64,000 nucleotides of DNA from the NCBI GenBank assembly GCA_032718475.1, contig JAUCBJ010000055.1, positions 67,051 to 131,050 of the forward strand. Direction: 5' to 3'. The position numbers were made by a program, and so were the translations under genes. Below the pieces are notes generated by a model. That model was not told the DNA's origin, ran no database searches, and saw nothing but the letters and a program-made list of their open reading frames with translations. The DNA comes from Nemertoderma westbladi (taxonomy: Eukaryota; Animalia; Xenacoelomorpha). Numbering within the stretch: the first letter of the stretch is position 1; every line of letters starts with the position of its first letter. Positions 1,838 through 37,432 of the stretch are shown here, one piece after another.

Positions 1838-2422
1838 TGTTAGCGTATTCAATTCCGCTAGCCAAGCCCACACAAAGTTAGCTTTTAAGCAATATTGGGA
1901 GCATGAGGTTGGTTACCAATCAACCTCGTGTCACCCCAATAAGCGGGGACAACAGGCCCCAAAGGGAACACACACACAACGGGGGTCAGAGGTTACACCT
2001 CCAGGAGAGAGAGAGACAACAGCAGCAGGGAAAAACACTCCCAGGGAGATGGGAGGGTGAGAAGTGAGTTATTAGCCAATGGGGGGAAGGCATCGGCTGA
2101 GTAACGCAATATGGCCAACCGTTGCAGTATATTACCAGCTACCATGTCATTCACTTCAGTTATCTCATTCAGTTAGTCGGTTCAGTTAGGGCAGAGCAGT
2201 GACTTCTAATACTGTCCGCTGCCGCCATCATTCACTTATATTTTATATCCTATTAATTCAATACTGCAATAACTGTGTCTGTGCTTATCCTATTATATTT
2301 ATACTGCTACAGCGTCAACAATATCAGAACTCTTAATCCGACAATAAACCCTTTTCACTCACACGGCGGGGACGCGTAAATAAAAGAACCGGGATAAATC
2401 GGGATCTTCAGATCCCGTCACA
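1838..2422 (+). repeat. 5' LTR of element A
   Basis: TGTTAGCG...CCCGTCACA, about 97-98% identical by eye to 42712-43281. TATA-like box ~2128, TCAGTT initiator ~2156, AATAAA 2343-2348. Confidence 0.95.
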
Positions 2423-2469
2423 GTATTAGAAACCAACAGCCCAAACTGTAGCTGCCAGCCACCGACCAA
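2423..2469 (+). promoter_or_regulatory. PBS position of A: non-tRNA, complementary to own LTR
   Basis: GTATTAGAA (2423-2431) is the reverse complement of TTCTAATAC (2204-2212). Further pairing, one mismatch each: 2439-2448/2183-2192 and 2461-2469/2173-2181. No TGG. Confidence 0.7.
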
Positions 2470-2479
2470 AAGACTAAAG

Positions 2480-4861
2480 ATGAGTCGAGGAAGAGAAACG
2501 ACACCGCCGCGGAACCCGGACGATGATGAAGACCTAACGATCCACTAACGGTACAGACCCACGACGCCGGACCCATTGACAACGGGCGATCCGGTAATCC
2601 AAGATGAGGGGGGCCGTCTACAACGAGAGGACGAGTTGGGAGAGGAGAAAGACGAGTCAACACAGAGTGGCGGTCGACGTGCCGAAGTCGCCAGCCAGCC
2701 ACAGGCCAAGTTTGACGGACGGCCCACCGGAACGGCGACGGTGGGGCTGCCGGTACGACGCCGGACCCGGAGAGATGGAGGAGATGTCGGCGACGAGGAC
2801 GTCGGGGTCAGCGACCGGCTCCGACGAGCCTACAACGCGACCCGAAAGCAACTGAAAGAAGCCAAAGGAGGGGCCAAAATAGATGAGGTGAAGTTGAAAA
2901 AACAACTAGGTGAGTCGAACAGACATTTTGATTACCTAATGCGTTTTGGGCAGGGAGAGCTACCCGACGAGAGAGCGAGAGGTGTTGCCAGCGAACTGTT
3001 TGAACTATGGAAATGTAGGGGTATGAAACCTAGTGTAGTGTACATAGGGCCATACTTAGTCGATGCCCGGGGAGTAAAATTAGTGGGTTGGAGGAGAACG
3101 CAGGAGGGCAAATCCGAGTTTAACCCCGAGGATTTGGTCTCGTCTGTCGGAGAAAGTTCCGGAAGGCGGGGGAAAATTAGTAGGACGGGAAGGCGGAGGG
3201 AGTCCTTCGTAACCGATAAGTCTGCTACATCCTCCGCAAAAGGAAGACGGGTGCAAAAAATAGATCTGGCATGCCAACTTGATCTGGCGGCGCTAGACCA
3301 GAGAGAATTAGAGAGACAGTTAGAGGAAGAGAGTGCATTAATAGAGAAGGAGAAAGAACTGGTTAGAGAGAACAAAGAGAGGGCCGAGAGGGCCACGAGA
3401 AGCTTTAGGGAGTGCGAGGAAATAGGAAAGATAAAAAGGAAGGAGCAAGAAGAGCGCGAGGCAGCGAGTGAGGCGGAACGTAAAGAGCGTGAGGCGGAAC
3501 GTAAAGAGCGCGAGGTGAGGGCGGAGAGTGAACGTAAGGAGCGCGAGGTGAGGGCAGATAATGAGCAGAGAGAACGTGAGGAGAGACGACTTAAGAGAGT
3601 TGCGAGAGAGGCAGAGTTAGCCGATCAGAGTTCACGAGAGAATAGAGAGAGAGAGAGAGCGAGATAAAACTTGTTCGGGATGGTATGCATGCCCGGCTAA
3701 GGGGGCTTATGCAGTATCAGACCAAACAGAAGCGCCGACTAGAACTGGGGCAGATGGGGCTGTCAGAGAGCGAGACTGGCTCGAGTATTTATGAGAAGCC
3801 AAGGGCTGTGGAACCATTTATTAATACCCCACTTACAGGGACTGGACGACAGACCCAAGACTGGTGTGACCGCACTGGCGGGGGGGGGGGGGGGGGTGGG
3901 GGTAATGATAATAATACAGTAGATGACGTTAATATTAATAGTACCGTAGTGGATAATTCTAACCAAACTTTCATTGCAGGAAATAATATTTTGCCCGACA
4001 GTAGTAATTTAAATCCGAGTAATTCTAATATTAATGTAGGAAATAACTCAAATAATATAATTACGCAAAATAATTCAAATAATTTAAATCTAAATCCTAA
4101 TTTACAAAATAATTCAAATAATCTTATTCCGAATGAACAAAACAATACCGTTTCTGATTTAGGTGTGCAAAATAATTTAATTGAATTGGAAGATTTAATT
4201 GATTTAACGGACGGTGTTGGTAGTGGTGCTATTAATGTGAGTGTGGCAGACGTGCATAGCCCGGCAAATGAGGGCCTGGTAGGCCGCGTAGTCAGTAGGC
4301 AGGAAGTGGCGGGGTTGAGCCAACCCGAAGGGGGCCTGGTAGGCCATGTAGCTAGTAGGCAGGAAGTGGCAGGGTTGAGTCAACCCGAGGGGGGCCTGGT
4401 AGGCCACGCAGTAGTAGATAGAGAGGCGGGGGTGAATAGACCCAGCCGCAGTAGAGACATTGTGTCGACTGGAGAAGGGTGTAGAAGTTAAGTAAGAGGT
4501 AGTGGAGTGATATGTGGTGAGTGGGGGGGGGGGGGCTGCAGGAGTCCTACAGCGAGAAGTTAGCGGCGAGAGGGGGGGGGGCAGGGAGTGCCTCACAGGC
4601 GTCGACGGATAATGCGCGGGCCGAATTAGGTAAACCGCAACACCCGGCAATGGAGAGTAATAGGGGGATTGCGAGTATCCCCAGCGGCGTGCGATCGGGC
4701 AGAGAGAGACAGGTTGACATCGCGAGAGGGCGGACGAAGCATCAAGCCCGATCAGAAGAGGGAAGAAGAACAGTGGAGTTTAACCGGGAGGTTGACGAGA
4801 GATCTCACGAGCGGGAATACTGCACTGGAGAGAGAAGAAGAGAAGAAAGTAAAAGAAGTGT
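2480..4861 (+). pseudogene. gag: Element A gag, N-terminal part (coiled-coil and N-rich regions), frameshifted
   Basis: ORFs 2576-3667 and 3685-4491 are homologous to B 17539-19733. Cut by the D insertion at 4857-4861; continues at 35388 on the minus strand. Confidence 0.8.
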
Positions 4862-6710
4862 TATTCAAAGAGACAGTAACAATACCTGCAATATCCTACT
4901 GTAGAGTTTGTGAATCAAATCATAAATCCGACCTTCTCACCAAAACAGTAAACTCCAAGTAAGCGAATATATATTGCAGTATCGGTCTCTTATAACCGGT
5001 GAGGCAGAAAACAGTCTACAAACAGACAAACTTCGATAAAACAAAATCCCGCGCAGCGAATCCTAAAATCAGGCTGACTCACTGACGGACTAAGGGGCTC
5101 GTATACTTTGCCGCGGTGTGATTTATATGGTTGGGCGAAAAGGACGCTAGCTAGGTGCAGAGATCTGGAGATGCCTAACTAGCGGGCAAAGCGCAGTACG
5201 GACAAAAGTTAATTTTATATATTTTGAGGTGTAAATAATTTCTAACTCGCGTGTGTTAATTCTGAACCATCAACATCAGTTTTGCTCCTTCATATATATA
5301 ATTACTGGGTACGGTGTGCATTTTACAAATATTCTAATTTTGTAACTTGTAGGTCCAATACTCACAAATGATAAGGCTCCTTCCCCTTTCATGTATTTCC
5401 AGGACTCAAATTCAGGCATAAGGTTAATACTACGCCCAGAATTCGGCAATTTAATTTACCAGGTCCCTAATACTAAGAAGAAATGTTAGTTTACTACAGT
5501 AGGCGTACTGTTACTAATAGCTAGCCTGGCGTCCTATCTAGAATTTTGGTTACCTAGGTGGGCTTGGTAACTTCCTATCAGGATGTCGGCGGGGACACGG
5601 TAGATGTTAGTATCCCTAATTAGCCTCAATTTATTTGCGCCTAGTCGTAAACTGCCCTACCGCCTGAACGGTACAATCCTAATTCAGGTAAAACACAGTA
5701 ACCCTCCTGGCCTACAAGTTCTAATGCAATGGACACCGTTGTACTACAAATAGTCACAGACGCACCTGCACTTAGCAAGAGTTAGGCGTACAGTTTGCTG
5801 CACCCTACCAATGTGTATGCCTTGTACCGGTGTGCCTACGTCCTATCTGCGTACTAGTATCTCTGCCTGCTCTCCCCCCGTAGGAGTATGAAGGTCTACT
5901 GCGGTTTTTTCCTGAATTAAAACAGTACAATTCCTAGATGTAATTTTTGGCGCACAGCGTGTCACTACCTCTACCTTCGATCTTTGGTCTTATACTTAGG
6001 TAGCAAGGCATCGAACGCTGTCTAACCTTTCAGGCGATGGGCGAATAACTAAGAGTGATATTGCGGGTTGTCTCCTGTCTACATTCCTTAGATGTTCTCG
6101 TTCATTGCTGTGGCCCAATGTCTAGCCAGCCATCCTGTCCCTCAGTTGAGTTCACCGTGGTGAAGCATAGTAAAACAGATAGAAAAAGGGCAGATTAGCG
6201 ATAATTCTGACTTTATTACAGAAGATATACTGAGAGATATAAAGATAGATATAACTGAGAGATAACTAATGAACAAATCGCACCCTTTTATAGCAAATTT
6301 GTGCTGCAATCAATCGAGAAAATTCTCGATTGTTCTATGAGTTCTAATAGGTTTTTAAAGATAACTATTGGTCCAGCGAATATATAACTTGCACGACATT
6401 GGTTACAATCTAATAACTACAATCTCATTGGTTAATCTTACTTCGAGCAAATGCAATTAATCTGTAGCGGTCAATTTAAATGAGTTGAACTCTGCACAAA
6501 AAATAATTCGCACCTACTAGGATTCGAACTCAATACACACTACATATAATTTCCAACGCTCTACCGACTGAGCTACTGAACCACTTGAATAATCATCGTA
6601 CAAATAGATATAGTAATACAAATGAGGACTTAATGTAATCTTTTAACAAAGTTAATTCGAATAAAATAAAATTTTGAAAATCCACGGCGTTTAGAGAATA
6701 TAATTCTATA
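4862..6710 (-). repeat. 3' LTR of element D (~1.85 kb, termini TATAG...GAATA)
   Basis: Reverse complement of 35389-37382. Preceded on its own strand by a short purine-rich tract (GGAGCGG, 6711-6717). Confidence 0.9.
6498..6582 (-). ncRNA. tRNA-derived Pol III-type unit inside D LTR (copy 1)
   Basis: A box TAGCTCAGTCGG, B box GAGTTCGAATCC, then T6. Acceptor stem does not pair, so this is not a bona fide tRNA. Confidence 0.55.
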
Positions 6711-7554: not shown

Positions 7555-8754
7555 TTATCGCTTAGTAGATCGAGCCCTGCCGCGTCCTCGAAAACTGCGC
7601 ACAGGTGACTTTGCTCGCGATATGGGACTCGTGGGGCGAGTCACTGGTTTTGCTTGTACGTTGGGAGACGGTGCGACCGTTTCCTCACAAATTCGTCTAT
7701 TTGGTATCCCAAAACCTCGACCGATTCCTCGTGACCGATCAGTTGTCACTACAGTTGGTAAAACGTCTGGCAACGCGCGGAAAGCGGTCGACGCAGACCC
7801 AAGAGTAGCTTGCGCCCCCTTTTGATCAGCTGGTGTATGTCCCGATCCTCCTGTTGGTTCTCTAGGAAGCGATACCGTATCCCGAGTAATTCGAATGGTC
7901 GGCTCAACTCCCTTGCGTTCTTCTATATTAATAGACTTCTTTAATTGTTGGCTCACTTTCTGGACCCTTATGATCCTACCCTGTCCGTCCTCCCGAGGGT
8001 GACGTGCAGACGGCGCAACCGGAGTGGCTGGTATATTTGTCGCCTCTAGGATCTCCTCTTCCTCAAATACGCTCGCTCGTATACGTTTGTGGTAAAACGC
8101 GGCTCGGTATGCCCATGCGACGGTTAACCAAGCTCCCTTATTCCGCTTTTCAGTTCGGAAACAATCAAATTCACCATACGTGATACGATTCACAACTTTC
8201 TGAAAATTCCACGTATTTTTATTGTCCGGGTGAATCTGTAACAGATACTCGCGCACCACTCTAAATCCACTATCGTGAGGCAAAATGTCGACTACCTCGA
8301 TAAGTTCGTCATATTGGGGCATAGCGGAGATGTATCCTTCCGACATCATCGTTTGGGGATTTACCGCCCAAAATCCAAGATGCGCTCTCATCGGAAATCG
8401 TCTTCTTTGTGCCGATACGTGTTCGTCGGCTAAATCTTCCCACTCATCGAATAGTTTTCTCACGAGTTTTACAGATTCGTGTTCATAAGGTATGTCTCTT
8501 AGTTGGCATTCAGATGCTCGATGCCCTTTTATATTGCAATAAGTACATTGAGCCATAAATCTCCAGCAATTATAAAAGGTATGAGACCCTTGATCTCCAC
8601 ACCATCCACAGATTAGTTGAGTCGTAGTAATGTGCTTTCCACTGCACTTGGTCAAATGATGTCCAGCGACGCCACATTTACCACACATTGTATTGGCAGG
8701 GTACCACACTCGTTCATATATAAGATCTCCAATTGGTCGAGCGCTTCCTCCCAC
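7555..8754 (-). CDS. D ORF2, C-terminal part: three CCHC zinc knuckles plus a basic low-complexity tail
   Basis: CGKCGVAGHHLTKC, CGWCGDQGSHTFYNC, CTYCNIKGHRASEC. Same frame as 8809-11388, separated only by one TGA. Confidence 0.8.
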   Translation of the reverse strand: MGGSARPIGDLIYERVWYPANTMCGKCGVAGHHLTKCSGKHITTTQLICGWCGDQGSHTFYNCWRFMAQCTYCNIKGHRASECQLRDIPYEHESVKLVRKLFDEWEDLADEHVSAQRRRFPMRAHLGFWAVNPQTMMSEGYISAMPQYDELIEVVDILPHDSGFRVVREYLLQIHPDNKNTWNFQKVVNRITYGEFDCFRTEKRNKGAWLTVAWAYRAAFYHKRIRASVFEEEEILEATNIPATPVAPSARHPREDGQGRIIRVQKVSQQLKKSINIEERKGVEPTIRITRDTVSLPREPTGGSGHTPADQKGAQATLGSASTAFRALPDVLPTVVTTDRSRGIGRGFGIPNRRICEETVAPSPNVQAKPVTRPTSPISRAKSPVRSFRGRGRARSTKR

Positions 8755-8808
8755 ACTATAATCATAATCATCTGGATCTATGGGTTGGTAGGTTTCTGAA
8801 GGTTGTAT

Positions 8809-11388
8809 TCAAACTACAGCATCTGTTGCTTCAAGTTGTCGAATCTCCGTCTGAGATTTCTTCGGGAGGTTCCTTTCTATCTCAAGAAGTTCCTCTAAAG
8901 GATCGTCAGTGATCGTAGTCGTTACTTCGAAATCATCACCAAGGTGACCGATAGGCGCGCGCGTCTGCCGTGATTCATCCATAACCTCCACGATACGTTC
9001 TCCTTCATAGGGTAACAATGTAAACATAGATGGTCTTTCGATAAGAGATCCCGCACAGCGAAGATACACGTCTCGAAATATACTAAATCCTGCTCGAGTA
9101 AAGGCATTACACTGAGCGTCGGAGTTGTAGAAGGGTTCAAGAAATCGTCTAAACACGTCGGTATGAATTCTCCCTTCCATGTAGAACATATGATCTTCTC
9201 CGAGACAAAGTGGATGTCTTTTAAGAGTCCGAGACACAATGTCGGCGATTAAGCAAACATTCACTGACGACTCTATTGCTAAATAATATTGTAGGACCGC
9301 TCTTGGAGGTGACGTAATAGCCCAATACACGCATCCTCTCCATTTGAGCTGTGATTCAAACTCACTCATATCTGGAGTATCACCTTCTCCATAAGTCTCA
9401 ATATACTTGGCTCTCTTACTTTCCTTATAATCCCAATTGAATAACAGGTAGGAAATGTATCCAGTTCCGGTCTTCTGAGTATTATACTCACGAAAATATC
9501 CTTGTTCTATAGACCACAAGATAAGAGGTCGAGTGTCGACGTACGGTGTCGGTAGTCGGTCATCGCTGTCCGTCATGCCGGTGAAGTCGCTAATTAAGTC
9601 CTCTCTTACTCCTGATCCAATCTTTACAACAGTTTTATCTAAAATCATATTTCTTACCATCTTCGGTAGCATTCTAGCATCGATATTACAAGCTTGGTCC
9701 ATCTTCTTTACTATGTCAGTGATGAGATGGTGTCGCTTTGTATTTGCTGGAGGTATCGGCATTCGTTTGTCGCTCCTCTGTCTACTGAAAACGTGCAAGA
9801 CTCCGTCCGCCGCTCTAATTTGTATAGTCTTAGAAGTCAAACTCTGTTGATGACTGCCGCCCTCGTTATCGTAAAACATGTAACCGTTTTCCTGAAACGA
9901 TCTAAACGTTCTATTCCATTCGTCCAACAATTCTTCCGAAGGTTGCCAAATCTTCTCTATGTCCTTATCATCTTCGAAACGAATAACCTTACCTCGCCAA
10001 TCCGCGGCAATATCTGTATCCGACTCGAAGGTTCCAGTTCCAATCCATAAACGAATCGTTCTGGTTAAATATCCTTTCAAATTACTCGGAGCTATATCAG
10101 CACCAGCTCTATCCAGTTCCCTAAAGTCTTGAATATGAGGTGGAACGTTATACACGACCTTTTGAGTAATATGTCTACGTAAATCATATATCTTACTCAT
10201 ATCGCTAAAAACAACTGCAGGAAGAAACTCCAAGTTTGAAATAATTTCTGGATGATCCACGATGGGTATTTCGTACGTCGTATCCTGTCGGACTGGTATA
10301 CTAATAGGAAAATTGAGTGTCGTACTCAATGGTTTCGTAGTCGAAGTACTATATGGTTGCATTTCTCTTTTCCTCTCCGGGGATGCAATCTGTAGTCTCT
10401 GAATAACATTTTGAGCAAAGTTTATGCTCTCGAAAACTTCCGGTGTCATCTCCTTAGCTGGAGTTTGATCGTGTGACGTCCAATGGTAAGGTAGGCTCGC
10501 GAGTCTTCCGCCCCATTCTTCCATCTCACCTTTCTCAAAAGCCTTGTAGGCTCTGTATAGGCTAAGAGCTTCTTTCTTTTCGCGGGTTGACTGATTCGCC
10601 TCGTCCAGCATAAGTTCAAATGCATCGGGTTCAACAACCTTAGGTGGGTAAACGACAGTTTCTCCCGCCTTTGGTCCAGTCATAGCAAACGAATGATATG
10701 GATTTGATAAAGGATACCCTCCTTCCTGGTAGCGTAGTCGTTGATGGTTCGAACACCTCGCCAATATCGGTTCGGGATTTTCCTTATTCAAACGCATTGG
10801 AATCGCATTTCGTTGTTCGCGCATACAAGAACCGCATTGATAATAAAGTTTATAAACTGAAAATGCTTCCTTTGTTTCTCTATCGTCCCCTCGAGTTCGT
10901 CTGTAAAGGTGCATTCCATCGAATTCATCTCGTACCGCAGGCATAGGTTCGTGCGCCTTCAGGTATTGCATGGTATGATACAAATGACTAATTTCAGTAT
11001 CGGGGTCTTCGCTAATGTCTCCCGTATCACACAAAGCGTCGTACGGGTAAAGTTCATTGAAGGTTTTGCGCAAACTTTCGATTCTTTCATTTAATGCGTT
11101 TTGCCTCCTTTTTAATACATTTGAGTCATATTTAGTTCTCGCGAGTTTCGCAGTACTTTCTGATAATTCCTTTATACCAAATATAGTGTAGTCTTTGGCT
11201 CCAAATCTCTCGAATGGCGCTGCTGCTTCCTCTTGGATATCATATCCCCATCTCGGCTCTCCATGTATCTCCTTCTCCATAATTAGAGGTGTAGTTACAT
11301 AATCATTACTACTAGAGGGAATACAACAGAGTTTGTAGTTAGTTGTGAGGAGACGTGAGAGTTTTCGTCTGCCCTTTTGGCTCGACAA
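8809..11388 (-). CDS. D ORF2, N-terminal part: DEDD(y)-like 3'-5' exonuclease domain protein
   Basis: ExoI-like GYMFYDNEG, ExoII-like VVKIGSGVREDL, YVDTRPL and ExoIII-like QYYLAIE, in RNase D/WRN-exo order. 859-codon open frame. Confidence 0.65.
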   Translation of the reverse strand: MSSQKGRRKLSRLLTTNYKLCCIPSSSNDYVTTPLIMEKEIHGEPRWGYDIQEEAAAPFERFGAKDYTIFGIKELSESTAKLARTKYDSNVLKRRQNALNERIESLRKTFNELYPYDALCDTGDISEDPDTEISHLYHTMQYLKAHEPMPAVRDEFDGMHLYRRTRGDDRETKEAFSVYKLYYQCGSCMREQRNAIPMRLNKENPEPILARCSNHQRLRYQEGGYPLSNPYHSFAMTGPKAGETVVYPPKVVEPDAFELMLDEANQSTREKKEALSLYRAYKAFEKGEMEEWGGRLASLPYHWTSHDQTPAKEMTPEVFESINFAQNVIQRLQIASPERKREMQPYSTSTTKPLSTTLNFPISIPVRQDTTYEIPIVDHPEIISNLEFLPAVVFSDMSKIYDLRRHITQKVVYNVPPHIQDFRELDRAGADIAPSNLKGYLTRTIRLWIGTGTFESDTDIAADWRGKVIRFEDDKDIEKIWQPSEELLDEWNRTFRSFQENGYMFYDNEGGSHQQSLTSKTIQIRAADGVLHVFSRQRSDKRMPIPPANTKRHHLITDIVKKMDQACNIDARMLPKMVRNMILDKTVVKIGSGVREDLISDFTGMTDSDDRLPTPYVDTRPLILWSIEQGYFREYNTQKTGTGYISYLLFNWDYKESKRAKYIETYGEGDTPDMSEFESQLKWRGCVYWAITSPPRAVLQYYLAIESSVNVCLIADIVSRTLKRHPLCLGEDHMFYMEGRIHTDVFRRFLEPFYNSDAQCNAFTRAGFSIFRDVYLRCAGSLIERPSMFTLLPYEGERIVEVMDESRQTRAPIGHLGDDFEVTTTITDDPLEELLEIERNLPKKSQTEIRQLEATDAVV

Positions 11389-11940
11389 CGCTCTAACCTC
11401 CTACCCATAGCCTAAGATCTAGGGTTTCTTTAATGACACGCTGCTTCTTATCTAAAATTTTTTGCCGAAATAAAAACGAATTTGGGCTAAACTGGCTGTG
11501 AGTCTAAAATACTCACCTTTTGATCCCAAACTATTATCAGAAAATAAGCAGTCAAGAGTTAGTAATAAATATAGGGAAGTCTATTTTGACGTAACTTATT
11601 GAAACAAGACCGTGTAAAATTTAATTAAAATTTTTAAGAAAGGCTCGCAAGTCTTCCTCTCTTGTTTCTCTAATTTTAAGTTCCACCCGACTGTACCCTG
11701 AAATCTATTCACTGTAGAAAATTTTAAAATTTTTCAAATCCAAATGGATTGTCTAAAATTTCGAAAATGTCTCAATATTGTGAGTTCCAAGTAGAATTCC
11801 ATTTCTTATACCTACAAATCCCGCTCCTATGTGACACATAAGGGTACTACCCTCAATGTTCACATATAAAGACAATGGAATTCTACCGCTGTCCTTACTA
11901 CAGTGTACAGGTACGTGGAAATCTATTTGTAAACTCCTAA

Positions 11941-14900
11941 TTATTTACTAATATTAGGTGGAGATTTGTAGTCTCCAGACTCGTTACGAGTCTCTTCAAG
12001 AAGTACGAGACGTTGAGTCGGTCTGTCTACTGTACGACCGTCAATTGTCCGTACCGTCACAGTTCTTGTCACTCCATCCATAGATGGATGTGTGGCTAAA
12101 ATTACACCTGTTATCCAGAAGCGTCTTTTTAGATTCACTTCCGCTAACAGCACGTGATCTCCCGGCTTTAATGCGCGGGTGTTATTGTACCATGTTGTTC
12201 TGGCAGAAATAGAGGGCAAATAATGGTTTTGCCATATTTCCCAGAATTTGTTAGCTAGTATTTGTGTGATTTTCCACGCTTTTCTACCGTAGCTATCGCC
12301 TTCCATTGGAAAAGAAATAGGCGTCAAAGTAGTCGGTGCCTGCATAAGCAGGTGTGCCGGTGTCAAAGCAAACTGGGATTGTTTGTCATCGGGTACTAAT
12401 ACTATTGGTCTAGTATTTAGTATTGCCTCGATTTCAACAAACAGTGTTGTCAGTTGGTCGTCTGTCAAAATGTGGTTTACTGGAATGACCTTTGCCATTG
12501 CCGTTTTTATATATCTAATCAATCTCTCCCAGACTCCGCCTCTCCATGGACTATCTGGAGGATTAAACTTCCAAACAATCTTGTAAGGACGTAGTTCGTT
12601 TGAGATTTGATCATGATCTAATTTCTTAAAGGCTCTAGCAATTTCATTTCGAGCACCAACAAAGTTTGTACCTTGGTCTGAGTACAAGCATTTCACTAGT
12701 CCGCGTCTAGCGATAAATCGCCGCAATGCTAGTATAAACGCGTTGGTGGAAAGATCCATCACACGTTCAATATGAACTGCCCTACTGGACATACATGTGA
12801 AAATCAGTCCCCAGCGTTTTACTAGTATACGTCCACGTTTCGTATGTATGGGACCAAAGCAATCAATTCCAGTCTCTGTAAAAGGTGGTCTGAATGCTTG
12901 AAGTCGTGCTTGTGGAAGTTCACTCATTTCTTGAGTGCCTATTCTAGAATGTACCTTTTTACAAATAATACACGTACGTATCACTGAACTTAACGCTTTA
13001 CTGGGTCTAATTAATACAAATCTTGTACGTAAGTAGGAAAGACAGTGGTGTCTTCCAGCGTGTTTCAGATGTAAATGTGTGTCCAGTATCATTGCACGTT
13101 GTAATTCGTGATGCTGCGGTATTATTATTGGGTATCTAAAGTTTGTGTTAAAGTCAATGTTTTGAAGCCGAGATTTATGACAAATTAAGCCATTATAAAT
13201 TATCGGACTCCAACTCAATATTGGTGATGACTTGATTGGTTGACCTTGATTTATAGATGTGAATTCGCGTGCGAAATATCGCAGTTGGTAATGGCGAATT
13301 AATTTAATTTCACACCTGTCAATCTCAGTCAATGTAAGTCGACGTGTAAAGTCTCGTTTGCCTTTAACGTATTGTACAAAACGTACAATCCACGCTAATT
13401 TTCGGCAAGCATTTGTCCAAGAATCTGTTAAGTTTACAATACGGTCGACGTAAGTATTTGTGACGTCATCAGGTAAGTCAATGGAGAATTTGGAAGGTTT
13501 TGATTTACTAGAAGGGCCCACGGGTCCGCCGGTAGGTATTCCCTTGTTGACTGTTGATCCGTCCGGGTCTACAAGTAATTTGTCCTTCTTTGTTTTCTTA
13601 CCTTGATTGTCAGTACTTTGTAAGTCGATCGTTAATGGTGGTTTGAACTCTATGGGGTCACTGGGTTTCGGTAAACTTATTTTTCTGCCGATATTAATCC
13701 CAGGTCTCACCATAGGTTGCAAGTTTGGTATGTCTCTTGAGCGCAAAGTAACACCTGTATTTACATTTACGTAGGTACTACCCACATCTGTAATACATGA
13801 GGTTTCACTGTGCTTATGGTTACTCAAGTGTGTCAAATTTGGTAGTTTGTCAATACAAGGCCGCTCCAATAGGGAAACTGCTGCTTTACTATTTGTCAAT
13901 AGGTTACTAGTACTAGTGTCTGGTAGAACATTTTGTGACATGTCTGGTAGAATGTTTCGCGGAACATCCGCCGAAATATCTAGTGACGTGTCTGGCTAAA
14001 TGTCTGGTTGACCGTCTAGTAACGCGTCTGGTTGACCATCTGGCGATATGTCTGGTGTAGAAAGGGTCGCAAGTCTTCCGTTCTTGACCTTTGAAGTTAT
14101 ATCTTTCCATTTCGCCTTCGGTTTTTTCTTGAGTTTAGCCGCCGTCCTTTTCTTTGCTTTCCCTTTCTTTGGTTTTTTAATTTCGGCGTCTTTAGGGATA
14201 GCGTTAGACTTGTTGTCGTATAGTGGCGGCCAATGTTGTACTGATCTTTGCAAGAATTGTGGTCCGTGTTGCCAAAATTCTTTGTTTTCCGGTTTACAGA
14301 ATTCCTCGGGCATCATTCCTCGCGACGCAATATCAGCTGGATTTTGTGGTCCGGGACAATGTCGCCAATCTTCCTTTATTGAACGGTCTAGAATTTCTGC
14401 GCGACGGTTAGCTACGAATGTCTTGAATTCAAGTGTGTCGTTGTTTATGTAAAATAAAACCAACGTCACGTCAGTCCAATAAAATATCTGTAAACTTGAC
14501 TGTAGTTCCGTCTGTATAAGGTTCACGATTGTGGTTGACAGGGTTGCGGCTTGTAGCTCAGCGCGTGGTGTCGTCATATACTTAGTAGGCATGGTCTTAG
14601 CCTTAGAAGTAATGAGCGAAACATCAAACTCTTCTGAGTCTACTTGTCTGCGCAAGTACGCTGCCACACCAAAGCCGTTGTCACTGGTGTTGGAAAAACA
14701 ATGTAATTCCAAGTTGTCAGGAAACGTCGTTTGTAATGGAAAGTACACTCTGGGTATGGAATAATCCTCTAGTGAAGATAATTGTGCCTCCCAGGTTTTC
14801 CATAAGTCCACTTGTTCTGATGAGATCGGCTCGTCCCATGTCAGTCCATCCTTCCAAATACTGCGCATATAAATTCTGGCTTGCAGTATTATTGGACTGA

Positions 14901-16917: not shown

Positions 16918-16922
16918 GTCTC

Positions 16923-17466
16923 TGTTAGCTTATTCAATCCCGCTAACACCCCATAAAGTTATAAGCCGATAAGCAATATTGGGAGCCACGAGATTGGGTA
17001 ATTAGCCAACTCGTGCCATCCCAATAAGAATGGGAAGGAAACACACAACGAGGGTCAGGGGCCAAACCCCTAACCCAGAGAGAATAGGTGGAGTGAACGG
17101 GAACACTCCAAAGGGCGCCAACAAGGGTATCAACCAATCAGAGGGGGAAAGGCATCGATTAGGTAGAGTAACAAGGCCAACCGTGCAATATAGCCACTTG
17201 GCAGTAATCATATCAATTCAGTTATCTCAGTGCAATACCGGTGCTAGATTAGGTTACATAGTTTAGCTAGGGAAGGACCGGGACTTTAGTTACCGTATCC
17301 CGCCTTCCGTATACGACAATATTATCTCATATCTATATCTATATCTATATCTGCATACCCGAATATTATATACGACAAACAGCACAAACTCATTCACTCT
17401 TTATACACGGCGGGGACGCGTGAACTAACAACGGATAAACCGGGATCCCTCTTGGATCCCGTCACA
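16923..17466 (+). repeat. 5' LTR of B
   Basis: TGTTAGC...CCCGTCACA, direct repeat of 25749-26293. Confidence 0.97.
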
Positions 17467-17497
17467 GTAACTAAACCAGAGCTGCCGCCCTAGCTAA
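17467..17497 (+). promoter_or_regulatory. PBS position of B: non-tRNA, complementary to own LTR
   Basis: GTAACTAAA (17467-17475) pairs with TTTAGTTAC (17285-17293). CCCTAGCTAA (17488-17497) pairs with TTAGCTAGGG (17263-17272). Confidence 0.7.
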
Positions 17498-17538
17498 CTA
17501 GACTCAGCAACCACCAGCCACCAACCTGCAGAAGAGAG

Positions 17539-24185: not shown

Positions 24186-24499
24186 GAGAGAGTAAGAGGT
24201 AGAAGGGTATATAAGATATAGATATTAGTTAGCAGTTAGTAGCGTTAGTAGCGAGAGGAGGGCATATGAGTACAGCTGGGTAAATTGTGTGGCCACACGA
24301 CGCACACTGCTGTACTGCATAGGCCCACAGAGTAGGCCAGAATGTGGATTAGGGAATAGAATAATCAATAGGAAGCAGTAAGGTAGTAGGATTGAAATTA
24401 AATCAAAAATAAAATTAGAATAAGAATAGGGCTAAGAAGGGGAACAAATTATGGTAACAGTAGTAAGAATAGGCAATAACTCAGAAATTCAGAAAGAGA

Positions 24500-25710: not shown

Positions 25711-25748
25711 ATGCTATCTTCTTACCGGGAAGATAGCATGGGGGGGAG
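25711..25748 (+). promoter_or_regulatory. 11-bp hairpin plus polypurine tract of B
   Basis: ATGCTATCTTC-7nt-GAAGATAGCAT, then GGGGGGGAG directly before the LTR TG. Confidence 0.85.
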
Positions 25749-26293
25749 TGTTAGCTTATTCAATCCCGCTAACACCACATAAAGTTATAAGCCGATAAGC
25801 AATATTGGGAGCCACGAGATTGGGTAATTAGCCAACTCGTGCCATCCCAATAAGAATGGGAAGGAAACACACAACGAGGGTCAGGGGCCAAACCCCTAAC
25901 CCAGAGAGAATAGGTGGAGTGAACGAGAACACTCCAAAGGGCGCCAACAAGGGTATCAACCAATCAGAGGGGGGAAAGGCATCGATTAGGTAGAGTAACA
26001 AGGCCAACCGTGCAATATAGCCACTTGGCAGTAATCATATCAATTCAGTTATCTCAGTGCAATACCGGTGCTAGATTAGGTTACATAGTTTAGCTAGGGA
26101 AGGACCAGGACTTTAGTTACCGTATCCCGCCTTCCGTATACGACAATATTATCTCATATCTATATCTATATCTATATCTGCATACCCGAATATTATATAC
26201 GACAAACAGCACAAACTCATTCACTCTTTATACACGGCGGGGATGCGTGAACTAACAACGGATAAACCGGGATCCCTCTTGGATCCCGTCACA
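25749..26293 (+). repeat. 3' LTR of B
   Basis: Direct repeat of 16923-17466, followed by TSD GTCTC. Confidence 0.97.
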
Positions 26294-26298
26294 GTCTC

Positions 26299-28337: not shown

Positions 28338-28700
28338 TACTTACCTTGACTTTCAGAATGGGTGATGACGTTGCTCTTGGCGGTGTAAACTTGTCCCCGC
28401 TGTTTGTGCACCTCCCTGAAATGGTCTTGTAGCGCTCGCGCTCCGTGACCTCTCTCTAATTGCTCGTAGTATCCCCTCGTCTTCTCTTCCGGATGCCTCT
28501 TGGTGAAATCCACCAGTATCTCCTTTCCTCCTAACTCCGCCTTTCTCTTCCTGATCAGTTTTCCCACCATTCCGAACTCTCTCACTCGCTCACCTGTAAG
28601 GTGGTGCCTTGCCAAGGCGCAGTACAGATGAGTGATAAGTTTAAGATGGTCTGTGCAGTTCGACAATGGCCTATTTTCTACTTAATTCTGAGTTATAGCC
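28338..28700 (-). pseudogene. A ORF2 N-terminus (inverted segment)
   Basis: ORF 28337-28666 joins in frame to 39865 onward (HSESQGK|YVVKGDEAKF) when the inversion is reversed. Confidence 0.75.
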
Positions 28701-29039
28701 TAAGTTTTCTTACTTAATTCCTAAAGTGCTAAATTGTACCCTAAATTGCAATTTTGTCCGTTACTTTAATTATGTTCCAGAATTTTCTTACTACTGTTAC
28801 CATAATTTGTTAGTTTTCTTATTTTGTTTTAATTTAATTCAATCCTACTATGCTACTACCTACTTATTAATGCCAATGGATTACTCTATTTTGTAATCCA
28901 CATTCTGGCCTACTCTATGGGCTTGTGCAGTACAACAGTATGCGTCGCGTGGCCTACACAATTTGTCCAGCTGTACTCATACGCCCCCCTCTCGCTTCTC
29001 ACTACTAACTAATATCTACATTATACATACCCTTCTACC

Positions 29040-29540
29040 ACTAACTCTTACTATCCGGTACTACGTACCCTCTTACTAACTTCTAACTAACTTCTACCAA
29101 CCGGTACTACGTACCCTCTTACTAACCTCTAACTCTATCTAACTAACTAACAGTACTACGTACCATCTAACTCTTACTCTCTCTAACTAACTAATGGTAC
29201 TACGTACCCTCTAAATCTTACTCTCTCTAACTAACTAACTAATGGTACTACGTACCCTCTAACTCTTACTCTCTCTAACTAACTAACGGTACTACGTACC
29301 CTCTAACTCTTACTCTCTCTAACTAACTAACGGTACGACGTACCCTCTAAATCTTACTTTCTCTAACTAACTAACGGTACTACGTACCCTCTAAGTCTTA
29401 CTCTCTCTAACTAACTAACGGTACTACGTACCCTCTAACTACTAACTCTCTACCTAACGGTACTACGTACCTTCTAACTACTAACTCTCTACCTAACCGT
29501 ACTACGTACCTTCTAACTACTAACTAACTAACTAACTTCC
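29040..29540 (-). repeat. Tandem array between pol and ORF2 of A
   Basis: ggtactacgtaccctctaactcttactctctctaactaactaac repeated about 12 times. Confidence 0.9.
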
Positions 29541-29681
29541 ATCTGCCTACTTACTCTTTCTTTATTTTATTTATTATTTTTATTATTTTTATGTGTGGGA
29601 AGGGCGTCTCGCCCTCAATCCCACCCCCCTCAGTCCAAAACTTGGACGACTAAACACCACTAAACTTCACTCTAATTCAAC

Positions 29682-32600
29682 TTAAGGTGCTCCCTCTAGA
29701 AGACAGCACTTCCCTACAGCCCTCCTATAGGTTTTATTGTCTTTCGCACCTATCTTGCCACCTATCCACACTTCTACCGATCGGACTCTTCCATCCTCAT
29801 CGGAGTAAGTGCCCACAACTCTCACCAACCGCCATTGGTTGTTGATGATGGTATCGTCAGTGACGATCACAAGATCACCCTTCTTTAGCTCTCTATTCGT
29901 GTTCCTCCACTTACTTCTTCTATGTAGTGTGGGCAGATATTCCTCGACCCACCTCTTCCAGTACTCTGCGCTTATCGCCTTAGCAACTTTCCAACTCTGT
30001 CGGGAGTGTATATCGTCTGGGTCTACACCCCGCATGTCGATTGTCGCTGGCCTTTCCATTAGAAAGTTACTGGGCGTCAGCACGTCTAATGACTCAGGGT
30101 CATCATTTTCTAGATATAGCGGTCTGCTATTAATGATACCCTCACACTTCGCTAGTACTGTCCTTAGTACGTCCTCCATAACCATGTGGGTGTTCATCAA
30201 CTTCGTCATCAGACGCTTGGAAATCCTATCCCACTTCACCTGTTGTCTTCTCATGGCTGCCCTGACTTCTTCCCCTTCCAGGATATCCAAGGCCTCTGCC
30301 ATCTTGTTCTCCGCCCCCACAAAGTTGGTCCCATTGTCAGAATATATTACTGTGATCGTACCACCTTTGCGGTCTCTAAACCTTTCTAGAGCATTAATGA
30401 ATGCTGATGCGGTTGCATCCTGGGCGAGTTCTATCCCTACCGCCCGCGTGTTGTTACATACGAATATAATGCTGTAGCGTTTCTCAGTGTGTCGCATCAC
30501 CTTAAACTTTATTGGCCCGAACATATCCACACCGCAATGCGTAAATGGCGGGTCATGTTGCCTTACCCTACTCGCCGGTAGTGGTGCCATCTCCTGTATG
30601 GCTCGCTCCTTCTTTGCTCATCGGCAGGTCTGGCACTGCCCCACTACCGCCTTTACCTTCTTCCTCAGCTGTTTGACCCAAAAGGTCCTCCGTATCTCCG
30701 TGAGGGTTCGGTTGGTACCCCCGTGCAATATCGACTTGTGGGAGTCCCATATAATCTGATGGACTATCGGCGATCCAGTAGGTATGATGATGGGCTTTGG
30801 CGGTATTACAATACTGTTGTTATTCAGTACCCTAGAGTTCATTACTAGGATCCCGTCATCATTAAGTTGTGGTGATAGCGTGATCAGCTCGCTGTCCCGT
30901 CGGAGATGCTGTTGTTTACTGACGCGTTCCACCTCGTCGCCGTAGTTCTTTCTCTGCTTGTAGCAGATGATTGCCTTGGCCGCTCCTTCCAGATCGATGG
31001 TTGTCCTGATTTTTACGTCCTTGCCGACTCCCTTGAGGAAATCCCCAAAGGCTCTCCAGTAAGCCACTAACTTCTTGGTCTTGTACCAACTAGAGCTGTA
31101 GCTAAAGAGTTTGTCCATTGGGTTATCGCACAGTTCTTCCGGTTTCGGTTGCACGTCCCTTATCTCCCTCACCATTTGACTATATATCTCCTCACCTTCT
31201 GAATCTACTCCCTCCTCCTCTAATGCTACTTGTTCTGCGCCCGGGTCCATTGGCGGCCAGGCCTCCTTATTGTTCAGAAACTGTGGCCCGTGTTGCCACA
31301 ATACTTCCTTTTTTAAGAAAGTGTGGCGTGCCACGCTCCTTGATAACAAGTCCGCTGGGTTCTCGACCGTTGGGCAGTAGTGCCACCTTTCTAGCTCTGT
31401 GGTCGCCCTTCTTTCGTCTACCCTATTTGCGACGAATATAGGGTATCTCGTCCTTTCGTTATGTGGCCAACCAAGCACTACCATGGAATCCGTCCAGTAG
31501 TGTGTCTCCACTATGTTGGGAATAGCGTCCATTAAGTAGACTGTGGCCCAAACTCCTAGCCTCGCAGCTGTCAATTCGAGTTTGGGAACCAACGCTGAAT
31601 CTGGTGGTGTCGACTTTGCCTTGCTGAAGGCGAGCCTGGGCTTGTGTGCCCCCTATCGTTGTACTAAATAGAGTGCCGCTCCGTATGCCTCTAATGACGC
31701 ATCGGAGAACATGTGCAGATCCAGATTCGTCATGTCCCCATCCGGGAAATACACTTGTGGCATGCTGTATGTTCCCATCTGCTCCAAACTCTCTGTCCAT
31801 TTACACCACTGTTTCCAGATCTCTTCTGGTACCTCTGCGTCCCACTCGTCCTTCAATTTGTACACTCTTTTGAGTATCTGTTTTCCTGTGACTAGTAATG
31901 GGGATGCTAGGCCTAGGAGATCGTATATCCTCGCTATATACGACACATAGCCCCTTTTCGTGTGGATGTCTGCGCCCTCCTGGCTTAATTGGTACTTCAG
32001 CTCGTCTGTCTCTTTGTTCCACACGATCCCCAGTGCCTTCTGTTGGGACTCTAAACGTTTGGTCGCCATGTCCTGCCCCTTGGCTGTCGTGGGATTATCC
32101 ATGGTCGATCCTGGCTTCTCAAGTTTTATCGCCTCGATAAATTCCTCCAAACTGGATTGGAATTTGGTTAGGTTAAAGCCGGATCCTTTAAGGATGTCGC
32201 GAACCTCGCGCCCTGTGTCCAGTAGCCCCTTAACCATCTTCCCAGACTCCATCCCGTCATCTACGTAGAAGCCGCGTTGAATCATATCCACGGCCCTAGC
32301 ACTGTATTTATCTTCCTTCCCCTCTACTGTATCTCTCACGGCTATAGTCGTCGTAAACGAAGACGACTTGGCTCCCATATTCTGTACTACCATCTTGTAC
32401 ATCGGTATAGTAGACGGTTCCTCGTCGCCGTCGTACCATAGGAAGCGTTGGCTGTCTCTATCCTCTTTGTCACACGGCCTTGGTTGAACATGCCTTCTAT
32501 GTCACAGGTGAAGGCGTGTTTCCCGTTCCTGAATCTAAGTAGGACCTTGATCCCTGAGTTGTAGATATTGGGACCCTCCAGCAGATAATAGTTTAGGCAT

Positions 32601-35388
32601 TTGCCGTTTGTTTTAGCCGATGCGTCAACTACCATCCGCAGTTTACCTTTCTTTGGGTCTAGAGCCAAAGAGCCTTAGAGCAAAAGAAAGCCTTTCTCGA
32701 CGTACTTCCTAATCGTCCTGTGGATGTACTCATTCTTCTCGGGGCTCCGTTTTAGTGTCTGCTTCAACTTACAAAGCCTCGTAAGTACCATCCCTCTATT
32801 GTCGGGTAGCAGTAGCTTCGGTAGTTTCCATACCATCCCTATGGTATACCGCCCCTCGTCGCATCTCATCGACTCCTTTACACTCTGTAGAGCCTGCTCG
32901 TCTTCTACCGAGGTTCTGACCCCGGTTTCTTTTAGTCCCTCAAAATCCTGCCTGAGCAGTCTCTTGAGTTGCTCCTCCGCTCCCTCATCCTCCATATCTT
33001 GCATAGTTCCCGCAAACATGTAGCCTGATGTCTCCGACATCCTAAAGGGTATTTTACTCTTAATTGGGCCGCTCAGCGTCCACCAGAATGGTGTTAGAAT
33101 CGCCACCGGGTCACACTGCCTGTCTTTGCCGAAGACCATTTGCATTCTCTCGTGGGCCGTTGGGCAGTCCATTCCTACTATGATGGATACCTTCCTAACT
33201 TCCACCTCTGGGATTGAGAAATTGATACTGTCCAGGAATCTGTATTGTTTGACCTCGATGTTGGTTGGTTGCCTGGCGTTGAAGTTTATCGATTCTATTA
33301 CCTGGATTGGGTCGATGGTCGCCCCATAGTCACATCCCGGTGCCACCACTGCTATCGCGCACCGTCCGGTCCTCATCTCCAGGACCTCATCTCTGCTGGA
33401 GATGGTTGTTACTGCCATTCTACTTGGCCTCGTTCTCAATCCTATCTCTTCGGCCACCCAATTCTCGATTAATGTGAAGGCAGCTCCACTATCGACCAGC
33501 ATCAGTGTGGTCACTGATCGATTGCCTTCTCCAATCACTCGCACTGGTACTACCCCGAGTAGTACCATTCCTCTCTTCTTTGCTCCCACGGTGCTCGTTG
33601 CCATTGTCTGACCCTTACTTTGACCGAACTTAAACGGCATTTCCTCGCATTGTTTAGCTCTATGTCCACTCATCACACATCGCGAGCAGATTTAATTTAT
33701 TCTCGCGTACCTGAACTTCTCTGGGTAGCGCTTGCCAGTACCTGCAGTTCATGGTCTGATGAAGTGCATTTGTATGTAGTTGGCATTTGCTCTTTGGGTA
33801 GTAGCCATCCTTATACAGTGCGTTACGTATAGCAGTTGAGTTAGTACCAAAGTCCCCACTATTCTTATTGTTTGGGTTTGGCCTACTGGGCGCGCTGGGG
33901 TTGTGTTTATTTGTGTTGTTATTTTTCCCCTGTCCGCTCCATGATGTGGTCTTACCCCTGGCTACCTGTGGACTGGCAGTCCCCTGCATCGCTGCGTATG
34001 GCAGTGACTGTCTGAGCTTTGGCAATGCGTTTGACGCGTTGTGTTCTGGTTTCGGTCTATGGTAATCAGTCTTTGGTCCTTTTCCCAGGCTATCCTCGCT
34101 ATAGACTGGGTCCGTTATTAGTTCAGCTTAATAGTTTAAGAAGCTCGACATCTCTTCTAAACCCGGTTCCGCACCCTTCCTATCTCGAGTGGAGAAAGCG
34201 ATCTTTGTCCACTTATTGCGCAGCCAAATCGGTTGTGCCTGCGCTATCGTAGTGATGTTGTTAGACACGTTGAGTTCGTATGGCGCATCCAGTGTCTTTA
34301 GTACGATTAGCGCCTTCTCAACTTTGTTAGCAAATGTCTTTATGCTAACAGGGTTATCCTGTAGGCTACCTGATGTTATGCCTCTCAGGGTTTGCCGGAT
34401 GATCTTGGCTGGGTGCCCGTATTCCCTGTCTAACGCCCGCCATGCCGTTGTGAAGCCACCCTCGATTCCCTGGTATTGCCTCACGATGTCATATGCTGGG
34501 CCTCCTATATACACTTGTAGATACTTTAGGCACTCCACCTGCGTCAAATTCTTTGTTAATATTTTATTACTATACATGCGCCGAAACTGTAGGTATTCTT
34601 CAGGCCTACTTCCATCGAATTTGAATGGTTCCACGGGTGGTAGCTCGATCCTGGTTTTTAATGCATCGATTAATGTGGCCATTCCCATTGCTTGCGCTTC
34701 CAATGGGTTCAATGGATGCTGTATAGGATGTTCTTGCACCTATTGGGGTATATTGTTGATATCGTGATAGGGGAATGTCACCCTGTCCCCCCCCCCCCCC
34801 CCCCCCCACCTGTATGTTTGGAACTGGGGTTGATGTTAATATATTGGGGCCCACGCCTCTATCCGCAATAATTCTCCCCTCCCCTGGGTATATGTTATGT
34901 CCCTGCATGCTGTAGTCATACTGCTGTGCTGGTACCGGTATAGGCCTATCAACTTCTGGCCTACCTGCCGGTATGTACTCCGCGACTTCCGGGTTTAATC
35001 CCGTCGTCCGCGCTATCCTATCGCCTACGTTATCTCTCCCAGCATGGCCTATAGTATGTGCAGTAAGGCCTACAGTATGTCCTGCAGTCTGTATGTGCCG
35101 CTCGGGATCAAAGTTTAATCTTCTCGAATAATCCTCCCCGCGGCTACCATAATCTCGATTGGCAGGTATATCCCGTCAGAAAATTTCTCTTCGACCCCCT
35201 CCACTACTCTCGTCCTTGTGCCGGTACATTACGTACCCCTCTCTCAGTGCGTATTGCGCCTTGTCAGGTCGCGTTTCTCCGGGACGACGGCAATCTCCCG
35301 AAGTTCGACCCCATTGACTTTCCGTTTCCACCTCGACTACCGACGGCTCTTTATCCGTCCTCGCTCTCCTGTCGTTCTTGACGACACT
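29682..35388 (-). pseudogene. pol: A gag-pol remainder (gag core, PR, RT, RH, IN); multiple frameshifts and deletions
   Basis: PFKFDGS gag; LVDSGA; GFYVDDG; LHMFSDAS; VPKLELTAA; HKSILHGG...CQTC; GVDMFGP; YSDNGTNF. Confidence 0.95.
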
Positions 35389-35516
35389 TATAGAATTATA
35401 TTCTCTAAACGCCGTGGATTTTCAAAATTTTATTTTATTCGAATTAACTTTGTTAAAAGATTACATTAAGTCCTCATTTGTATTACTATATCTATTTGTA
35501 CGATGATTATTCAAGT

Positions 35517-35601
35517 GGTTCAGTAGCTCAGTCGGTAGAGCGTTGGATATTATATGTAGTGTGTATTGAGTTCGAATCCTAGTAGGTGCGAATTATTTTT
35601 T
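35517..35601 (+). ncRNA. tRNA-derived Pol III-type unit inside D LTR (copy 2)
   Basis: GGTTCAGTAGCTCAGTCGGTAGAGCG...GAGTTCGAATCC...TTTTTT. Confidence 0.55.
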
Positions 35602-35666
35602 GTGCAGAGTTCAACTCATTTAAATTGACCGCTACAGATTAATTGCATTTGCTCGAAGTAAGATTA

Positions 35667-35855
35667 CTACTACTAGGATCGGCGTGCTGCATTGCAGCTG
35701 CATTTTTAAGAATGCTGTGCCGGCTTGTCAACAAAATTGCACCGCCACAACTCCCTATCACCCATGACATTTGCTAGATCATCCGCATCTTTAAGGCCAG
35801 TGTCCTTTAAGATGCGTCTCAAGAAAGTCATGGGCTGTCCACCATGCTTATATGC
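35667..35855 (-). mobile_element. 5'-truncated RTE LINE, 189 bp, with (TAG)n tail
   Basis: 11-bp TSD AAGTAAGATTA at 35656-35666 and 35856-35866. Absent from the other D LTR. Encodes an RTE-like C-terminus (TFLRRILKDTGL...MGDRELWR). Confidence 0.85.
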
Positions 35856-37382
35856 AAGTAAGATTAACCAATGAGATTGTAGTTATTAGATTGTAACCAA
35901 TGTCGTGCAAGTTATATATTCGCTGGACCAATAGTTATCTTTAAAAACCTATTAGAACTCATAGAACAATCGAGAATTTTCTCGATTGATTGCAGCACAA
36001 ATTTGCTATAAAAGGGTGCGATTTGTTCATTAGTTATCTCTCAGTTATATCTATCTTTATATCTCTCAGTATATCTTCTGTAATAAAGTCAGAATTATCG
36101 CTAATCTGCCCTTTTTCTATCTGTTTTACTATGCTTCACCACGGTGAACTCAACTGAGGGACAGGATGGCTGGCTAGACATTGGGCCACAGCAATGAACG
36201 AGAACATCTAAGGAATGTAGACAGGAGACAACCCGCAATATCACTCTTAGTTATTCGCCCATCGCCTGAAAGGTTAGACAGCGTTCGATGCCTTGCTACC
36301 TAAGTATAAGACCAAAGATCGAAGGTAGAGGTAGTGACACGCTGTGCGCCAAAAATTACTTCTAGGAATTGTACTGTTTTAATTCAGGAAAAAACCGCAG
36401 TAGACCTTCATACTCCGGTACAAGGCATACACATTGGTAGGGTGCAGCAAACTGTACGCCTAACTCTTGCTAAGTGCAGGTGCGTCTGTGACTATTTGTA
36501 GTACAACGGTGTCCATTGCATTAGAACTTGTAGGCCAGGAGGGTTACTGTGTTTTACCTGAATTAGGATTGTACCGTTCAGGCGGTAGGGCAGTTTACGA
36601 CTAGGCGCAAATAAATTGAGGCTAATTAGGGATACTAACATCTACCGTGTCCCCGCCGACATCCTGATAGGAAGTTACCAAGCCCACCTAGGTAACCAAA
36701 ATTCTAGATAGGACGCCAGGCTAGCTATTAGTAACAGTACGCCTACTGTAGTAAACTAACATTTCTTCTTAGTATTAGGGACCTGGTAAATTAAATTGCC
36801 GAATTCTGGGCGTAGTATTAACCTTATGCCTGAATTTGAGTCCTGGAAATACATGAAAGGGGAAGGAGCCTTATCATTCGTGAGTATTGGACCTACAAGT
36901 TACAAAATTAGAATATTTGTAAAATGCACACAGTACCCAGTAATTATATATATGAAGGAGCAAAACTGATCTTGATGGTTCAGAATTAACACACGCGAGT
37001 TAGAAATTATTACACCTCAAAATATATAAAATTAACTTTTGTCCGTACTGCGCTTTGCCCGCTAGTTAGGCATCTCCAGATCTCTGCACCTAGCTAGCGT
37101 CCTTTTCGCCCAACCATATAAATCACACCGCGGCAAAGTATACGAGCCCCTTAGTCCGTCAGTGAGTCAGCCTGATTTTAGGATTCGCTGCGCGGGATTT
37201 TGTTTTATCGAAGTTTGTCTGTTCGTAGACTGTTTTCTGCCTCACCGGTTATAAGAGACCGATACTGCAATATATATTCGCTTACTTGGAGTTTACTGTT
37301 TTGGTGAGAAGGTCGGATTTATGATTTGATTCACAAACTCTACAGTAGGATATTGCAGGTATTGTTACTGTCTCTTCGAATA

Positions 37383-37432
37383 ATAGGAGTATGTGTATTA
37401 TTTAACATATTTCCTAGAATAGTAGGAGTATG
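37383..37432 (+). promoter_or_regulatory. PBS position of D: non-tRNA, duplicated TAGGAGTATG complementary to own LTR
   Basis: TAGGAGTATG (37384-37393) and GTAGGAGTATG (37422-37432) pair with element-sense CATACTCCTAC (+ strand 5880-5890). TTCCTAGA (37411-37418) pairs with TCTAGGAA (36361-36368). Confidence 0.65.

Follow-up and report, generated by a model that had tools for sequence, protein, structure and literature searches.

A 64,000-nt stretch of the genome of the xenacoelomorph Nemertoderma westbladi (assembly GCA_032718475.1, contig JAUCBJ010000055.1, positions 67,051 to 131,050 of the forward strand), referred to here as the window and numbered from its first letter, contains four nested BEL/Pao-type retrotransposons with long terminal repeats (LTRs), and our subject is the pairing between the bases that follow an LTR, where the primer-binding site (PBS) lies, and a segment within the LTR of the same element. 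Element B lies inside D, D inside A and A inside C, with the 5' end of C upstream of the window. The ends of the elements were set by LTR pairs and 5-bp target-site duplications (TSDs). An inversion at ~28543-40614, later than the nesting, flipped the D 5' LTR and the A pol gene; one of its breakpoints (~28543 and ~40614) falls in D gag and the other in the internal region of A. The LTRs and the sites that bear on priming are as follows, U3, R and U5 denoting the unique 3', repeat and unique 5' parts of the LTR.

1838-2422, + strand: 5' LTR of A, with TG...CA ends and a 5-bp TSD in common with its 3' LTR
2127-2161, + strand: TATA-like and initiator-like (Inr-like) motifs of A, with a presumed start near 2158, homologous to C 44092
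2176-2200, + strand: leader segments of A predicted to form outer helices with 2439-2466 (RNAfold and duplex calculation)
2204-2212, + strand: candidate primer 3' end of A, TTCTAATAC, with a helix probability of 0.94 and present in the minimum free energy (MFE) fold
2400-2417, + strand: U5-terminal hairpin of A, with counterparts at 17441-17461 in B and 44322-44341 in C
2423-2431, + strand: PBS position of A, complementary to 2204-2212, with no TGG
4862-6710, - strand: 3' LTR of D, 1849 bp with TA...TA ends
5880-5890, - strand: candidate primer 3' end of D, 32 nt past an acceptor-like site at 5911
16923-17466, + strand: 5' LTR of B, an internally deleted element with gag-pro and no reverse transcriptase (RT), RNase H (RH) or integrase (IN)
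17263-17272, + strand: second helix of B, pairing with 17488-17497
17285-17293, + strand: candidate primer 3' end of B, TTTAGTTAC
17467-17475, + strand: PBS position of B, complementary to 17285-17293
25749-26293, + strand: 3' LTR of B
35389-37382, + strand: 5' LTR of D, in which a deletion of 54 nt near 36416 cuts into the primer site
37384-37393, + strand: PBS position of D, 10 bp with the 3' LTR copy after a 1-nt spacer
37422-37455, + strand: second copy of the D site, forming three helices with the 32 nt that precede the primer end
42712-43281, + strand: 3' LTR of A, without 15 nt of the U5 hairpin
43760-44347, + strand: 3' LTR of C, with a start-site lead at 44092-44094 and a candidate primer end at 44137-44145

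An earlier note on this DNA held that the 5' LTRs of A, B and D are not followed by TGG, and this is so at the defined LTR ends. The pairing words that it named in the three elements are all present, and the complement does lie at the LTR edge, with a gap of 0 nt in A and B and of 1 nt in D. Its account of D stands in part: 37384-37393 pairs with 5880-5890, but the latter lies in the 3' LTR and the 5' copy is truncated, so that the 10-nt match rests on the 3' LTR because the 5' LTR has deleted part of the site. Of 5000 dinucleotide shuffles of each LTR, 37 in A, 22 in B and 29 in D (3' LTR) equalled the match, the scripts having taken LTR starts 1-2 nt short with the sites unaffected. The flanks of the 3' LTRs gave matches of 5-6 nt only, and for A as for B a single shuffle out of 500 reached the duplex energy between leader and post-LTR sequence. 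In A, B and C the U5 hairpin stands 5 nt upstream of the LTR end, with a probability of 0.96-0.98 in A and B, and the outer helices of A have alternative registers with mean pair probabilities of 0.3-0.6. In D, the three-helix pairing of the 32-nt segment with the second copy of the site (37422-55) was matched by none of 500 shuffles; it is the first copy (37384-37393), not the second, that sits at the integrated end.

The LTRs of A, B and C are related to one another (72-74% over their U3 parts), and the D LTR has no similarity to them, as had been claimed. The same three letters follow the primer segment in the A 3' LTR, B and C, by which the three primer sites are judged homologous by eye; a MAFFT alignment displaces the C site by three columns. 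The PBS sequences of A and B differ at positions 4-7, and all four changes are mirrored in the LTR (four of the nine pairs); the pairing is kept in A, B and C with different letters, and the primer end reads AC in all three. The distance from the start had been put at 45-65 nt in A and B and ~370 nt in D; the value for A, 55 nt, falls within that range, whereas B gives ~74 nt from the first Inr-like motif and D ~375 nt.

The earlier note also predicted that the unseen 5' LTR of C would be followed by a complement of its own LTR. Four public runs for this organism, representing no more than three samples, supplied contigs that were aligned to 44085-44362, and six loose-end cells begin at the C LTR end. 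Five of these are unrelated in sequence, as expected for the flanks of 3' or solo LTRs, and the sixth, from run X2, reads GT followed by the remaining seven letters of the predicted GTAAAACAA. The chance of such a match is 9e-5 to 8e-4 for the seven free letters, or 0.004-0.017 for positions 4-7 alone. Further downstream in this cell, seven letters pair by eye with 44118-44124, with one G-U pair, and resemble the second helix of A and B. No variant row is listed inside C 44137-44145, which is not proof of its constancy. In seven listed pieces of diverged families the match to C is limited to ~44093-44148. One contig of run X5 starts at C 44092, 30 nt after a TATA-like box, bears at that end what we take to be a template-switch adapter, and crosses the primer site without a joint. 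This single contig is a lead for the C start site and for an unspliced leader; reckoned from it, the C segment ends 52-54 nt after the start, beyond the first ~11 nt of the transcript.

Relatives were sought in metagenomes with a query alignment of a neighbouring subgroup, which gave 94 loci, namely the best 80 of 578 metagenome loci (24 of 64 parts scanned) and 14 from genome bins. A direct repeat was present in 32 of them; 15 were kept, making 14 families (L034 equals L030), and 17 were dropped where the 3' copy is cut by the contig end or the repeat does not reach the LTR end. L049 was kept though its contig stops exactly at the LTR end. These relatives are biased to one subgroup, and the insect BEL and Pao clades lie outside the scope. 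The genome-bin loci (L101-L114) are BEL/Pao elements in bacterial or archaeal bins, likely mis-binned contigs of animal hosts. TGG within 0-3 nt of the LTR end was found in none of the 14 repeat-defined families, and a complement of at least 10 nt (10-15 nt) to the family's own LTR was found in 11 of them under a strict and 13 under a relaxed filter, compared with 5 of 182 cross pairs (relatives included).

In four families (L039, L066, L072 and L091) the complement is contiguous and 10-12 nt long. In others, 5-8 nt of complement stand directly after a pyrimidine-rich AG and are extended, mismatch-free, by the last letters of an exon farther upstream that is followed by GT, so that the complement arises in seven to nine families only when a predicted GT-AG intron within the LTR is removed. 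The junction complement measures 11-15 nt in seven families under the strict filter, with L049 and L108 added under the relaxed one, and the introns would be 71-451 nt long. When any GT was allowed as donor, the canonical one was the sole best in 6/9 and tied best in 3/9, against a background in which 1-10% of GTs are canonical. The sisters L105 and L106 differ in three letters of exon 1 (ends TAA and CAC) and in the three corresponding PBS letters (TTA and GTG). The spacer at the LTR edge is 0-3 nt throughout, allowing G-U pairs lengthens one of 13 helices, and the primer end is AC in 9/13. From these patterns in the sequence we infer splicing in the relatives. For A, B and D a splice-made primer was sought and none was found.

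TGG seen at L036 and L052 was rejected, being at contig-overlap ends and in one case part of a gag ATG. After rotation of the contigs, L036 has an 11-nt contiguous match and L051 and L052 have junction matches of 12-13 nt; L103 has no match and L087 no polypurine tract (PPT). The U5-hairpin pattern occurred 20 times in viral contigs, each time in sequence unlike that of the window, and had no occurrence in the metagenomes; scanning the viral contigs at protein level also yielded no loci. On a quick tree the spliced and contiguous kinds are interspersed (208 of 500 shuffles as low), and quick trees neither show nor exclude a single origin of the self-priming kinds.

These data establish that the pairing feature is real and widespread. 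The tRNA-independent self-priming proposed in the earlier note draws support from the C result, from the pairing kept between families and from 13 of 14 independent families, and we consider it probable that in A, B, D and C the post-LTR bases pair with a stretch within the LTR of the same element and that this stretch serves as a self-primer, spliced in many relatives. Several points weigh against this reading. Cleavage and priming, like splicing, are steps that we infer. The acceptor filter was relaxed post hoc, after L049 and L108 had missed it; L038 gave no own-LTR complement under either filter; and 45 loci without a defined LTR end gave eight junction matches, five of them in new families, beside a null of 8 in 300 pairs. 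The matching C cell is the majority of two contigs with an agreement of only 0.72, and no contig joins the C primer site to the C PBS. In B the end helix has a probability of 0.30 and lies outside the MFE fold, 0.9 kcal above it (folding from the Inr-like start). The D 5' LTR has lost the last 3 nt of the site, and the 8 nt left are non-significant (502 of 5000 shuffles); the D primer would stand ~375 nt from the presumed start, and no convincing splice donor was found in D for the acceptor-like site at 5911. Finally, quick trees do not join A and D as sisters and place each on a long branch close to the group's base.

The closest known parallel is Tf1, in which the RNA's initial 11 bases anneal to the PBS and RNase H cleaves between bases 11 and 12, according to the available part of PMC7175516. 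As far as the portions at hand of PMC7175516 and PMC4600332 describe them, Tf1 and Tf2 of Schizosaccharomyces pombe, Tj1 of S. japonicus and the Tf1/sushi and Tcn1 groups (all Ty3/gypsy) resemble the window elements in having no tRNA site, a PBS complementary to their own 5' RNA and a helix of ~11 bp, and perhaps in a U5 stem-loop nearby. In contrast to Tf1, the segment in the window ends ~52-74 nt into the transcript (~375 nt in D), the elements are of BEL/Pao type, and the segment spans an intron in many relatives. We therefore read the arrangement as a Tf1-like mode of action outside the Tf1 group, with a primer that is long and often spliced.

In such a mechanism, transcription may start at the Inr-like motif ~30 nt after the TATA-like box, and the primer in A, B and C would be a capped RNA of 52-74 nt, held by a 9-bp end helix and the outer helices beside the U5 hairpin. 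By analogy with Tf1, the element's RNase H would cut after the final AC, minus strong-stop DNA would copy U5 and R as far as the cut, and the lost 5' piece would be restored from the 3' copy of R; in A, R extends ~150 nt past the primer site to AATAAA at 2343, which is long enough for strand transfer. In LTR elements the primer is copied by the plus strand and the PBS is thereby regenerated, and if general retroviral replication applies here the PBS would be rewritten from the primer in every cycle, which would explain the gap-free Watson-Crick matching. A primer leaves pairing of just this kind, gap-free and Watson-Crick, within 0-3 nt of the LTR edge throughout and in most cases with a terminal AC. 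In the intron-bearing relatives host splicing would complete the primer segment, and A, B and C would represent the intronless form. An intron upstream of the cut would be inheritable only via an unspliced 3' R, and a spliced 3' R would yield the contiguous kind. The duplicated site of D may, speculatively, come from read-through copying of a long primer. A broader proposal, which seems to us evenly balanced between right and wrong, is that a large BEL/Pao branch lacks tRNA priming, that its ancestral primer was a capped leader completed by splicing of an LTR intron, and that A, B and C are intron-loss descendants with a contiguous self-primer of tRNA size. Under this proposal only spliced 5' ends would replicate, and the 3' LTR copy must keep the intron.

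The alternative that survives best, although unlikely, is an LTR-derived primer acting in trans, supplied by the other packaged RNA, by a short transcript with a cap or by a small RNA that ends at this site, with no Tf1-like cut in cis. Such a primer predicts the same complementarity and covariation and makes the long distance in D and the weak cis fold of B matter less, but the outer helices and U5 hairpin are placed as in a cis fold-back, the A helix is in the MFE fold at 0.94, and R of C is without AATAAA near the site. Next, and likewise doubtful, the pairing may be a regulatory or packaging structure, for example a splicing sensor or a gate on gag translation, with priming by something else. 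Such a structure would have no need to stop within 0-3 nt of the LTR edge in one family after another, G-U pairs would be expected in it, and no room is left for another primer site; for it speak the outer helices, which end close to the gag ATG in A (2480) and in B (17539), and the fact that the primer role is read from sequence. It is quite improbable that internally cut host tRNAs prime, as they do for certain copia elements, and that the LTR match is a secondary feature: the primer ends of A, B and C do all read UAC, presumably the anticodon of one valine tRNA, but many different fragments would be needed, each matched by chance in its own LTR or splice junction. Half-tRNA priming does exist (PMC6317226, in part). 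Chance matches in AT-rich LTRs, as in one of nine window cross pairs at 9 nt (B post-LTR sequence with the C LTR, at a non-homologous place) and 5 of 182 metagenome cross pairs at 10 nt, are hardly credible in view of the homologous positions in A, B and C, the C prediction borne out by contigs, the shuffle tests and the 11-13 of 14 independent families, which contradict them.

The ICTV (International Committee on Taxonomy of Viruses) profile of Belpaoviridae gives an 18-nt PBS for tRNA-Arg or tRNA-Gly and priming by host tRNA, and calls replication poorly understood (PMC8742986). The window elements have in common with this family (Semotivirus) the LTRs, the PPT, the order protease (PR)-RT-RH-IN and the domains Peptidase_A17, DUF1759 and DUF5641, whereas the 18-nt tRNA PBS is found there and not here. 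These three Pfam domains and integrase occur in A and D, with gag-pro alone in B; the LTRs of A and B (544-585 bp) come with a PPT and a 5-bp TSD as in Belpaoviridae, the 1.85-kb D LTR is beyond the 0.2-1.2 kb range given for that family, and D and A pol share ~31% identity. A chromodomain, as in Ty3/gypsy chromovirus-type Pol, had no match among the Pfam domains of the window elements. Since no TGG stands at the defined LTR ends, we file them as a BEL/Pao-type variant and not as standard members.

Outside the gypsy group, self-priming has been predicted from sequence for the TAR lineage (Houba, Osr-1) of plant Ty1/copia, which belongs to another superfamily and for which the available part of PMC6317226 does not mention a splice-made primer. 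The fungal GalEa elements, with a conserved hairpin site, and Dictyostelium Skipper are LTR elements without a tRNA PBS; the parts of PMC5445492 and PMC5006619 at hand report no LTR complement in them, whereas the window elements have one. The term PBS is absent from the main text, as far as available, of three BEL/Pao surveys (PMC3118150, PMC6238403, PMC8556966), and no BEL/Pao self-priming or splice-made primer was found in the literature, Repbase and subscription journals being outside the coverage.

The remaining features of the window include two pol genes.

11941-16386, - strand: pol of D, RT-RH-IN, with two in-frame stops
29682-33691, - strand: pol of A, PR-RT-RH-IN, lying within the inversion and interrupted by a frameshift and two in-frame stops

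The Pol of A is an isolated long branch, and its RT-RH piece has at most 37% identity to the best 150 of 1.84 billion representatives. At the A 3' LTR end (43274-43281) the terminal ACA and the TSD are kept despite the 15-nt hairpin loss. The D LTRs begin and end with TA rather than TG...CA and have a clean 5-bp TSD, and the L039 LTR likewise ends in ATA. A further insertion of ~200 nt near 35660-35850 is confined to the D 5' LTR, and at 35510-35590, with a copy in 4862-6710, both D LTRs carry what we take to be tRNA-like A/B-box sequence, possibly a short interspersed nuclear element, for which ARAGORN and Rfam gave no match. After its pol, D has an extra reading frame of ~1,280 codons (7555-11400, - strand) with no Pfam or PDB match and a weak Atlas lead, 0.84 only, to 3'-5' exonuclease clusters. 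No tRNA gene was found in the window and no Rfam family at gathering scores, hence no known ribozyme at the proposed cut site. At 44343-47974, 51315-58702 and 53855-56335 lie the long interspersed nuclear element that hosts C, two remnants of gypsy-like integrase, and a reading frame for a THAP/P-element-like transposase. Summed contig depth is very high over the PPT and U3 start (42650-42826 and 43594-43770), which suggests that related families form a large group in the same organism.

If self-priming from the LTR is correct, self-priming extends to a whole branch within a third LTR superfamily, the geometry differs from that of Tf1, and in many members of the branch reverse transcription would depend on the spliceosome, a link that we did not find in the literature searched. 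Annotation filters based on the PBS would miss such elements, and the reading gives exact RNA ends and junctions that can be tested. The elements would also be free of the tRNA supply and of silencing by tRNA 3' fragments, as may be drawn from the available part of PMC7472051.

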